From Patescibacteria group bacterium (GTDB lineage Bacteria > Patescibacteriota > Patescibacteriia > S139-126 > S139-133), in NCBI GenBank assembly GCA_049604715.1, contig JBMYTV010000003.1:70228-123830 (forward strand): a DNA stretch of 53,603 nucleotides, given 5' to 3'. The translations under genes were made by a program, and so were the position numbers. Shown here piece after piece: positions 25,059 through 25,207 of this stretch. Positions within the stretch are counted from its first letter, which is position 1. Each line of letters begins with the position of its first letter. The notes beneath the pieces are model-generated. The model did no database searches. It was given only the letters and a program-made list of their open reading frames with translations, and had not been told where the DNA came from.

Positions 25059-25062
25059 TCAT

Positions 25063-25093
25063 AAAAAAATCGAGCCCTATCAGGCTCGGTTTT
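25063..25093 (-). terminator. Attenuator terminator immediately upstream of tRNA-Asn
   Basis: CGAGCC-TGATAG-GGCTCG-A-T7, ending 4 nt before the tRNA 5' end. Confidence 0.8.
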
Positions 25094-25121
25094 GGGTGTA
25101 CAACTCAAACAATACCAAGCC

Positions 25122-25169
25122 TTAGGAGCTTAGATTATTATTATTTGAATTGTTTACTTTATAATCCAT
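25122..25169 (-). CDS. Putative Asn-rich leader peptide MDYKVNNSNNNNLSS
   Basis: ATG GAT TAT AAA GTA AAC AAT TCA AAT AAT AAT AAT CTA AGC TCC TAA between promoter and terminator. Confidence 0.75.
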   Translation of the reverse strand: MDYKVNNSNNNNLSS

Positions 25170-25178
25170 AGTGTTTGT

Positions 25179-25207
25179 ATATTATCGAGTAAACCTAAAC
25201 ATGTCAA
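25179..25207 (-). promoter_or_regulatory. sigma70 promoter for leader peptide/tRNA-Asn
   Basis: TTGACA-17nt-TAATAT. Confidence 0.8.

Follow-up and report, generated by a model that had tools for sequence, protein, structure and literature searches.

A 53,603-nt stretch of contig JBMYTV010000003.1 from a Patescibacteria group bacterium (GenBank assembly GCA_049604715.1), referred to here as the window, carries on its minus strand a tRNA-Asn(GTT) gene preceded by a promoter, a short reading frame rich in asparagine (Asn) codons and an intrinsic terminator. On the basis of comparative sequence analysis and modelled folding, this arrangement can with considerable confidence be regarded as a working ribosome-mediated (leader-peptide) transcription attenuator that reads charged Asn-tRNA and controls the tRNA gene, which is the second tRNA-Asn gene of the genome. 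An attenuator of this kind had been put forward in a preliminary description made from the sequence alone, and the coordinates given there for the promoter, small frame, terminator, tRNA and pairings were all found to be correct when the sequence was re-read and refolded (Table 1).

The promoter, TTGACA-17-TAATAT (25207–25179), is the best promoter-like site between positions 22000 and 29000 and matches at 10 of 12 positions. The ATG of the leader frame (25169) lies 9 nt from the -10 box and has no ribosome-binding site; judging from this spacing, the window transcript probably starts 0–4 nt before the start codon and would be leaderless or nearly so. The near-leaderless 15-codon frame with six Asn in seven codons that had been described is indeed present at 25169–25122, the Asn residues falling within codons 6–12 and the TAA stop codon occupying 25124–25122. 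The G+C-rich hairpin of the terminator is followed by a U7 tract which, as reported previously, ends 4 nt before tRNA-Asn(GTT), and the tRNA itself (24983–25058) scores 75.9 bits against the Rfam tRNA model. A separate tRNA promoter downstream of the hairpin had been named as an observation that would speak against attenuation; in the window, the interval between hairpin and tRNA contains no such motif and has no room for one.

Folding of the 114-nt leader (25172–25059) yields a minimum energy of −34.2 kcal/mol (z = −5.3), and none of 200 shuffled sequences folded to an energy as low. In the minimum-energy structure the Asn codons at 25153–25139 form a 15-bp helix with 25114–25100 around an inner hairpin (25133–25115), and the terminator is formed as well. 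When a ribosome is masked on any of the Asn codons, 25122–25114 and neighbouring nucleotides pair with 25090–25082 at −16 to −25 kcal/mol and the terminator is lost, and when the ribosome is masked at the stop codon the terminator returns. The exchange between terminator and antiterminator that folding with and without masked Asn codons was suggested to reveal is hence predicted, and the three pairings of the preliminary description are each recovered: 1:2 in the minimum-energy fold, 2:3 once the Asn codons are occupied, and 3:4 both in the unmasked fold and with a ribosome at the stop codon. Terminator probability in the window is 0.96 in the free leader, 0.02 in the stalled state and 0.97 with a ribosome at the stop codon, and 0.91 with a shuffled spacer. 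The duplex of the antiterminator strand with its own terminator arm (−16.5 kcal/mol) is the best among the 90 arms tried.

A mode of regulation can be envisaged in which RNA polymerase starts at the strong promoter and the 5′-terminal or near-terminal AUG serves a ribosome as start codon. When Asn-tRNA is plentiful, the ribosome would reach the stop codon in the loop of the inner hairpin and cover the antiterminator strand (25122–25114), so that the terminator could form and transcription would stop 4 nt before the tRNA. Under a shortage of Asn-tRNA, the ribosome would stall in the run of six Asn codons and cover segment 1 together with the 5′ arm of the inner hairpin, and the antiterminator strand freed in this way would pair with the 5′ arm of the terminator, allowing polymerase to enter the tRNA gene. 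Untranslated RNA, such as read-through from the ATPase gene upstream, would fold into the 1:2 helix and the terminator and be stopped. According to this model, the output of the leader is probably a rise in tRNA when charged Asn-tRNA runs short.

The distribution of the element was surveyed in 185,579 genomes, one per species, by searching for the T-arm and anticodon loop of tRNA-Asn with at least four consecutive AAY codons 85–145 nt upstream. The scan returned at least 119 stretches, from which 116 tRNA-Asn/Asn-run rows were obtained, and the addition of five loci from relatives (the window included) gave 121. Twenty-three of these were excluded, either because a start or stop codon was missing or because the frame exceeded 35 codons; they comprise loci cut at contig ends and chance matches, the latter including the C-terminus of a Pseudomonas aminotransferase, Klebsiella, Flavobacterium and tRNA clusters. 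Six more rows have no terminator by the criteria used, which is thus present in 92 of the 98 short-frame loci. The 92 loci that combine a terminator with a frame not exceeding 35 codons (87 from the scan matches listed, the window and four relatives) encode leaders of 10–33 residues (median 17) with 4–10 Asn (median 6), written with 428 AAT and 165 AAC codons, and their median distances are 28 nt from stop codon to terminator stem and 13 nt from stem end to tRNA. In Sinorhizobium, activity in trans has been reported both for attenuator RNAs after their release and for leader peptides (PMC6614838 and PMC7298713, in the portions available), and the terminated leader RNA or the Asn-rich peptide might likewise act elsewhere, its position beside the tRNA being secondary. 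However, the peptides are not conserved beyond the Asn run, varying in length and in their flanks, and what stays constant fits a cis switch ending shortly before the tRNA, making action in trans a most improbable account of the element.

Neither the promoter nor the placement of the ATG was among the selection criteria of the scan, and the test for the ATG was frame-blind. Promoters with 9 or more matches out of 12 positions were detected in 80 of the 92 loci, and in 75 of these 80 an in-frame ATG, open to the Asn run, is located 4–12 nt (mostly 6–9 nt) after the -10 box; of the remaining five, two have only an out-of-frame ATG and three have none. This placement suggests that the leader frame is probably leaderless, and from it we infer that the frame is translated.

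The switch predicted for the window was evaluated across the 92 loci by averaging base-pair probabilities over the terminator stem for each of three masks (free, stalled and stop), with the A site of the ribosome set on an Asn codon in the stalled mask and with 15 shuffles per locus of the spacer from the last Asn codon to the terminator as control. In the free state the median was 0.76 for native and 0.94 for shuffled spacers. With the ribosome stalled on Asn codons, medians were 0.26 and 0.94, respectively, when averaged over codons and 0.01 and 0.92 for the best codon, and with the ribosome at the stop codon they were 0.96 and 0.94. The native value was below the shuffled one in the stalled state at 90 of the 92 loci, and a stalled minimum below 0.2 combined with a stop state above 0.8 was obtained for 65 loci, as opposed to one of the 92 shuffle averages; footprints of +7, +10 and +13 nt gave 66, 65 and 65 such loci. 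A cross-locus duplex test was used as a stand-in for covariation, the spacers being too divergent to align. The strand following the stop codon pairs with the terminator arm of its own locus at a median of −10.4 kcal/mol, compared with −6.5 kcal/mol for the arms of other loci, and for 48 of 90 loci the own arm falls in the top 10%, against an expectation of nine. The earlier proposal that stalling on the Asn codons frees segment 2 and blocks the terminator is therefore supported by both the comparison of loci and folding in silico.

The Asn codons constitute one strand of the 1:2 helix, such that anything keeping them single-stranded would tip the fold, and a switch operating without a ribosome can be conceived in which the AAU/AAC repeats are bound by the GUU anticodon of uncharged tRNA-Asn, in the manner of a T-box, or by a protein, thereby freeing the antiterminator. 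Such a switch is judged very improbable. It leaves unexplained the conserved ATG at leaderless distance with its open frame, as well as the placement of the stop codon, whose occupation by a terminating ribosome brings the terminator back in most loci. Third-position variation between AAT and AAC keeps Asn, although the scan itself required AAY. Rfam searches of positions 24000–26000 (E up to 1) matched only tRNA, with no T-box or other family detected in the leader, and no match other than tRNA was found in 16 related loci at the gathering score.

Loss of the small frame or of its Asn codons in relatives had been singled out as a test of the proposal, and the opposite is seen, since the layout is shared by a second genome of the family and by about a hundred further genomes. 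When the locus was compared by BLAST with 61 related genomes, one match extended through the leader, at 70% DNA identity, in a genome of the same family and another genus (G001). It has a TTGACT-17-TAATAT promoter and the same 9-nt gap to the ATG as the window, and its leader frame (MKYTVNNNNINNNRP) is again 15 codons long. An antiterminator strand there matches the terminator arm, and the hairpin with U6 ends 2 nt before tRNA-Asn. Thirty loci were fetched from the 61 related genomes and, among their 22 tRNA-Asn genes, seven, distributed over several families, are preceded by an Asn-rich small frame and a terminator.

For 80 of the 119 stretches listed, taxon labels were taken from database records; these are Magasanikbacteria (16), Komeilibacteria (5), Dojkabacteria (5), Saccharibacteria (3), Kuenenbacteria (1), Parcubacteria (1), "Patescibacteria group" (12), "uncultured Gammaproteobacteria" (25) and others (12). 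Going by such labels, the majority of the loci are from Patescibacteria. The leaders and tRNAs of the 25 loci labelled as gammaproteobacterial (L033, L035, L039, L046, L047, L053, L055, L057, L058, L061, L063, L065, L072, L074, L075, L078, L083–L085, L089, L090, L092, L095, L096, and L110) are nearly the same as those of Magasanikbacteria, and one such genome is ∼1.0 Mb. Because of this close resemblance of the leaders, the label of these assemblies looks wrong.

The window genome (1.05 Mb) contains 29 runs of at least four AAY codons, counting both strands, and the number of such runs expected in the 60-nt stretch upstream of its two tRNA-Asn genes is 0.0017. The genome, at 39.8% G+C, is not extremely A+T-rich. 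The arrangement is beyond chance, in agreement with the earlier argument that a match between the amino acid of the leader and the identity of the tRNA speaks against an A+T-rich coincidence. The preliminary description also called for a survey of the regions upstream of tRNA-Asn and of other tRNAs in related genomes, and among the tRNAs covered here convincing frames of cognate codons with terminators were encountered at tRNA-Asn only. Among 81 non-Asn tRNAs of the window genome and the fetched loci, none is preceded by an Asn-rich small frame and none by a convincing leader of its own cognate codons. The search for cognate leaders of other amino acids covered these 81 and the 48 distinct tRNAs of a further genome (G035), in which the attenuated tRNA-Asn has eight cognate residues in an eight-codon window and the other tRNAs have at most three, except for two Leu tRNAs with five and four. 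Leu and Arg frames with four or five cognate residues were considered as leaders of the same kind and set aside, as they look like chance occurrences. A second Asn attenuator was not found in the window genome either before asnS or, by eye, at other short frames with Asn runs.

The gene immediately upstream, which encodes a 910-aa P-type cation ATPase on the minus strand, ends at 25211, 4 nt ahead of the -35 box, and lacks its own terminator. The hairpin and U tract could accordingly be taken for a constitutive leaky terminator or insulator that stops transcripts of the ATPase gene or just lowers the output of tRNA, with the small frame as an untranslated bystander, and by eye several other tRNA genes of the genome have a small hairpin and U-run between promoter and tRNA. 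However, the upstream gene in G001 differs from that in the window and has its own terminator ahead of the leader promoter. A constitutive terminator likewise does not account for the in-frame, promoter-proximal ATG of 75 of the 80 promoter loci, the Asn codons, the matched antiterminator or the restriction to tRNA-Asn, and is considered quite improbable.

Several observations weigh against a ribosome-mediated attenuator. No clean switch is predicted in silico for 27 of the 92 loci, and in many the ribosome-free fold is already without the terminator (hence the median of 0.76), unlike the textbook trp leader. The loci are kin, so that counts across them overstate their independence. A look for sequencing runs covering positions 23500–27000 turned up one DNA run, perhaps the source of the stretch, and no RNA run. 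The start of the transcript, its 3′ terminus in the U tract and the translation of the frame are predictions from the sequence, with the response to Asn and a gain to the cell presumed alongside them. As the frame has no ribosome-binding site, the model also requires an uncultured lineage to initiate at a leaderless or near-leaderless start codon. What the cell would gain is not obvious, as it would make extra tRNA just when the amino acid itself is limiting, and it already possesses another tRNA-Asn gene that is not attenuated. The element is also a minority trait: a strict pattern for it matched 10 genomes out of 151 from the class and 3 out of 251 from the phylum, and the reversed pattern matched none in either set. 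Leaders whose Asn runs span three codons, or whose spacers are longer, escape this pattern. The element is real but patchy.

Two tRNA-Asn(GTT) genes are present in each of five genomes examined. Attenuated copies have U11:A24 in 81 of 92 cases, whereas unattenuated copies have C11:G24 in 15 of 16, and the two also differ at G26, C30:G40 (the 30:40 pair) and the variable loop; the attenuated copies are a distinct isodecoder type. The encoded CCA is missing in 53 of the 92 attenuated copies, and U1:A72 and G73 are kept in both types. All seven attenuated genes among the 22 of the fetched loci are of the tRNA type with D-arm GTAGTT...AAC, and none of the GTAGCTCAG-type tRNA-Asn genes among the same 22 has an Asn-rich leader. 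At locus L010 (genome G028), which has the same isodecoder type, a terminator-like hairpin with a U-run occurs 140 nt upstream together with a small frame (MTTSRLLITVNSFYQF) without an Asn run; this leader may be a decayed or re-purposed attenuator.

In 9 of the 68 loci with enough room downstream (L049, L064, L067, L068, L073, L082, L108, L113, and L141), asnS begins 38–333 nt after the attenuated tRNA, and in two more (L037 and L084) aspS lies downstream. In these last two and in L121, asnS ends 41–111 nt before the leader. Where asnS or aspS adjoins, the attenuator may also govern the synthetase gene. In L082, a promoter-like sequence (TAGTATAAT) is situated in the 85-nt gap to asnS, and co-transcription is not certain there.

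Across the five attenuator genomes examined, AsnRS and GatB were each detected in all five, AsnA in none, and an AsnB-type synthetase above the cut-off in one; the window genome encodes one AsnRS (428 aa). As asparagine synthetases are mostly missing, the hosts take up asparagine or form it on tRNA, and either way Asn-tRNA is a plausible weak point. The only AspRS of the window genome (G000 C4:39003-40406; L151:2204-3607) is of the bacterial type, and its length of 467 aa and two-stretch match to a 590-position profile suggest that it lacks the usual insertion domain. The coexistence of AsnRS, one bacterial AspRS and GatCAB with tRNA-dependent Asn synthesis is documented for Bdellovibrio in the available part of PMC4206432. 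Based on this precedent, the distinct isodecoder type, the presence of two tRNA-Asn genes, AsnRS and GatB without AsnA, and the location of aspS downstream in two loci, the attenuated gene might be a dedicated second isodecoder that is induced at Asn-tRNA shortage as the scaffold for an Asn-independent route, in which Asp-tRNA-Asn formed by a non-discriminating AspRS is amidated by GatCAB. The element would then be an attenuator of an asparagine "biosynthetic operon" with the tRNA as induced cofactor and, more broadly, the first known homeostat to measure decoding capacity at the ribosome and feed back on tRNA transcription. This reading is a tentative one and, on balance, doubtful.

Classical leader-peptide attenuators control the enterobacterial trp, his, leu, thr, ilv, and pheA amino acid biosynthetic operons, and in Escherichia coli an attenuator of this type also precedes the aminoacyl-tRNA synthetase genes pheST. 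The element described here shares with the classical attenuators a short frame in which codons for the amino acid being sensed stand in a run, mutually exclusive 1:2, 2:3 and 3:4 pairings among which the position of the ribosome decides, and an intrinsic terminator just before the regulated gene. It differs in that it senses Asn, that its target is a tRNA and not an enzyme operon, that its hosts are Patescibacteria, and that the frame has no ribosome-binding site and mostly lies 6–9 nt after the -10 box. As with the leaders of synthetase genes, control is exerted over a component needed to decode the amino acid that is sensed (asnS being adjacent in the nine loci listed above), yet here the gene directly behind the terminator is that of the cognate tRNA, which in the window stands alone there. 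The pheL leader has been described in PMC3082878, as far as its accessible part goes. In Streptomyces lividans, leaderless leader frames precede alaS, thrS, and trpS according to the available portion of PMC8079986, in which no Asn example is listed; the putatively leaderless transcription of the frame is a feature in common with these actinobacterial synthetase leaders. Like a T-box, the attenuator would sense the charging state of tRNA through a terminator/antiterminator switch upstream of genes for making aminoacyl-tRNA. Unlike it, reading would be done by a translated frame, whereas a T-box binds tRNA directly without a ribosome and possesses a specifier loop and the conserved T-box sequence.

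With regard to the usual targets of the family, the cognate tRNA is the target here, asnS or aspS follows in 11 of the 68 related loci, and a tRNA target lies outside the described range. The tRNA-Phe of E. coli was considered as a precedent for attenuation of a tRNA gene by a Phe leader and rejected, the pheV promoter of K-12 lying 3–4 nt from the tRNA with no leader frame; a pheV leader of only 3–4 nt is given in the part of PMC7049720 that is accessible. The statement in the preliminary description that no Asn leader or attenuator directed at a cognate tRNA was known agrees with the Rfam results and with the full-text literature searched, in which neither an Asn leader peptide nor an attenuator before a tRNA gene was found; subscription journals and supplements, which are unsearchable, may hold prior art. 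What is new is the amino acid, the class of target (a cognate tRNA gene, sometimes then asnS or aspS) and the host group, and the mechanism is the classical one.

Downstream of the tRNA, a hairpin followed by U7 (24895–24864) probably ends the tRNA transcript. A promoter-like sequence for the next gene, of the arsR family, was noted by eye (TTGCAC-17-TACTAT, 24917–24889) and overlaps the trailer hairpin. For this ArsR-family gene, the ATG at 24863, directly after the hairpin and U7 of the tRNA unit, is a likelier start than the listed TTG at 24878.

Two further features of tRNA leaders were seen in these genomes. Many tRNA genes have, 50–160 nt upstream, a copy of their own first 11–35 nt (the 5′ strand of the acceptor and the D-arm, sometimes as far as the anticodon stem). 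A small conserved hairpin (TCCGCCCAAGGCGGA or a variant of it) breaks up this copy, and often additional hairpins do so as well. An exact 11-nt upstream copy was detected for 7 of 209 tRNAs examined versus none in controls, and in two of three precursors that were folded it is the copy, and not the true 5′ end, that pairs with the 3′ acceptor strand of the tRNA in the lowest-energy structure. One tRNA-Met has a matching copy of the 3′ half downstream. The same hairpin motif occurs in the trailer of the window tRNA-Asn (24943–24957, minus strand) with no tRNA after it, and in relatives L023, L027, L034, and L066 a 5′ copy is located between the Asn attenuator and the tRNA. A literature search returned nothing on this arrangement. 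Secondly, a short hairpin and U-rich run without a frame of cognate codons was noticed by eye between promoter and tRNA at ∼48368–48394 (minus strand) of the window, before tRNA-Lys (48283–48357), and similarly, again by eye, in the window genome (G000) on contig C11 before tRNA-Asp and on C7 before tRNA-Glu and tRNA-Gly. Leaders of this terminator-like kind may be general among the tRNA transcription units of this genome.

Table 1. Features of the tRNA-Asn attenuator locus (window coordinates) and sites of tRNA 5′ copies in the window genome (contig coordinates).
Feature	Position	Strand	Basis or remark
-35 box TTGACA	25202..25207	(-)	sequence reading
-10 box TAATAT	25179..25184	(-)	17-nt spacer from -35 box
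Leader peptide frame, 15 codons and TAA, MDYKVNNSNNNNLSS	25122..25169	(-)	short Asn-rich frame conserved in 92 loci
Regulatory codons AAC AAT TCA AAT AAT AAT AAT	25134..25154	(-)	6 Asn in 7 codons
Segment 1, 5′ strand of outer 15-bp helix, inside Asn codons	25139..25153	(-)	folding
Inner hairpin, 7 bp, stop codon in loop, 3′ arm GGCUUGG being the antiterminator strand	25115..25133	(-)	folding
3′ strand of outer helix, UAUUGUUUGAGUUGU, partner of Asn codons	25100..25114	(-)	folding
Segment 2, antiterminator strand, AGGCUUGGU	25114..25122	(-)	masked folding and duplex test
Segment 3, ACCGAGCCU, partner of segment 2, 5′ arm of terminator	25082..25090	(-)	masked folding and duplex test
Intrinsic terminator, 7-bp hairpin (25088-25071) and U7 (25069-25063)	25063..25088	(-)	sequence and folding
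tRNA-Asn(GTT), regulated gene, second Asn isodecoder of genome, U11:A24	24983..25058	(-)	tRNA call
Trailer with conserved hairpin motif TCTGCCCAAGGCGGA (24957-24943) and hairpin with U7 (24895-24864)	24864..24982	(-)	
tRNA 5′-copy/hairpin sites, G000	C1:20530-20583, C1:21009-21111, C2:19793-19890, C4:44918-45010, C7:323-470, C10:28392-28479, C15:1580-1670, C5:46220-46326, C1:137393-137470		

If the tRNA-Asn element acts as proposed, leader-peptide attenuation, so far described at operons for enzymes and at a small number of synthetase genes, would extend to a tRNA gene and to asparagine, and Patescibacteria with genomes of ∼1 Mb and few known regulators would be using coupled transcription-translation sensing by way of a leaderless frame. 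The element can be recognised by its parts (promoter, ATG, Asn run, stop codon, antiterminator, terminator and tRNA-Asn) and could be incorporated into annotation pipelines and Rfam-like libraries. It would offer a sequence-defined handle on the control of tRNA supply and on asparagine physiology in uncultured bacteria that apparently have no asparagine synthetases.

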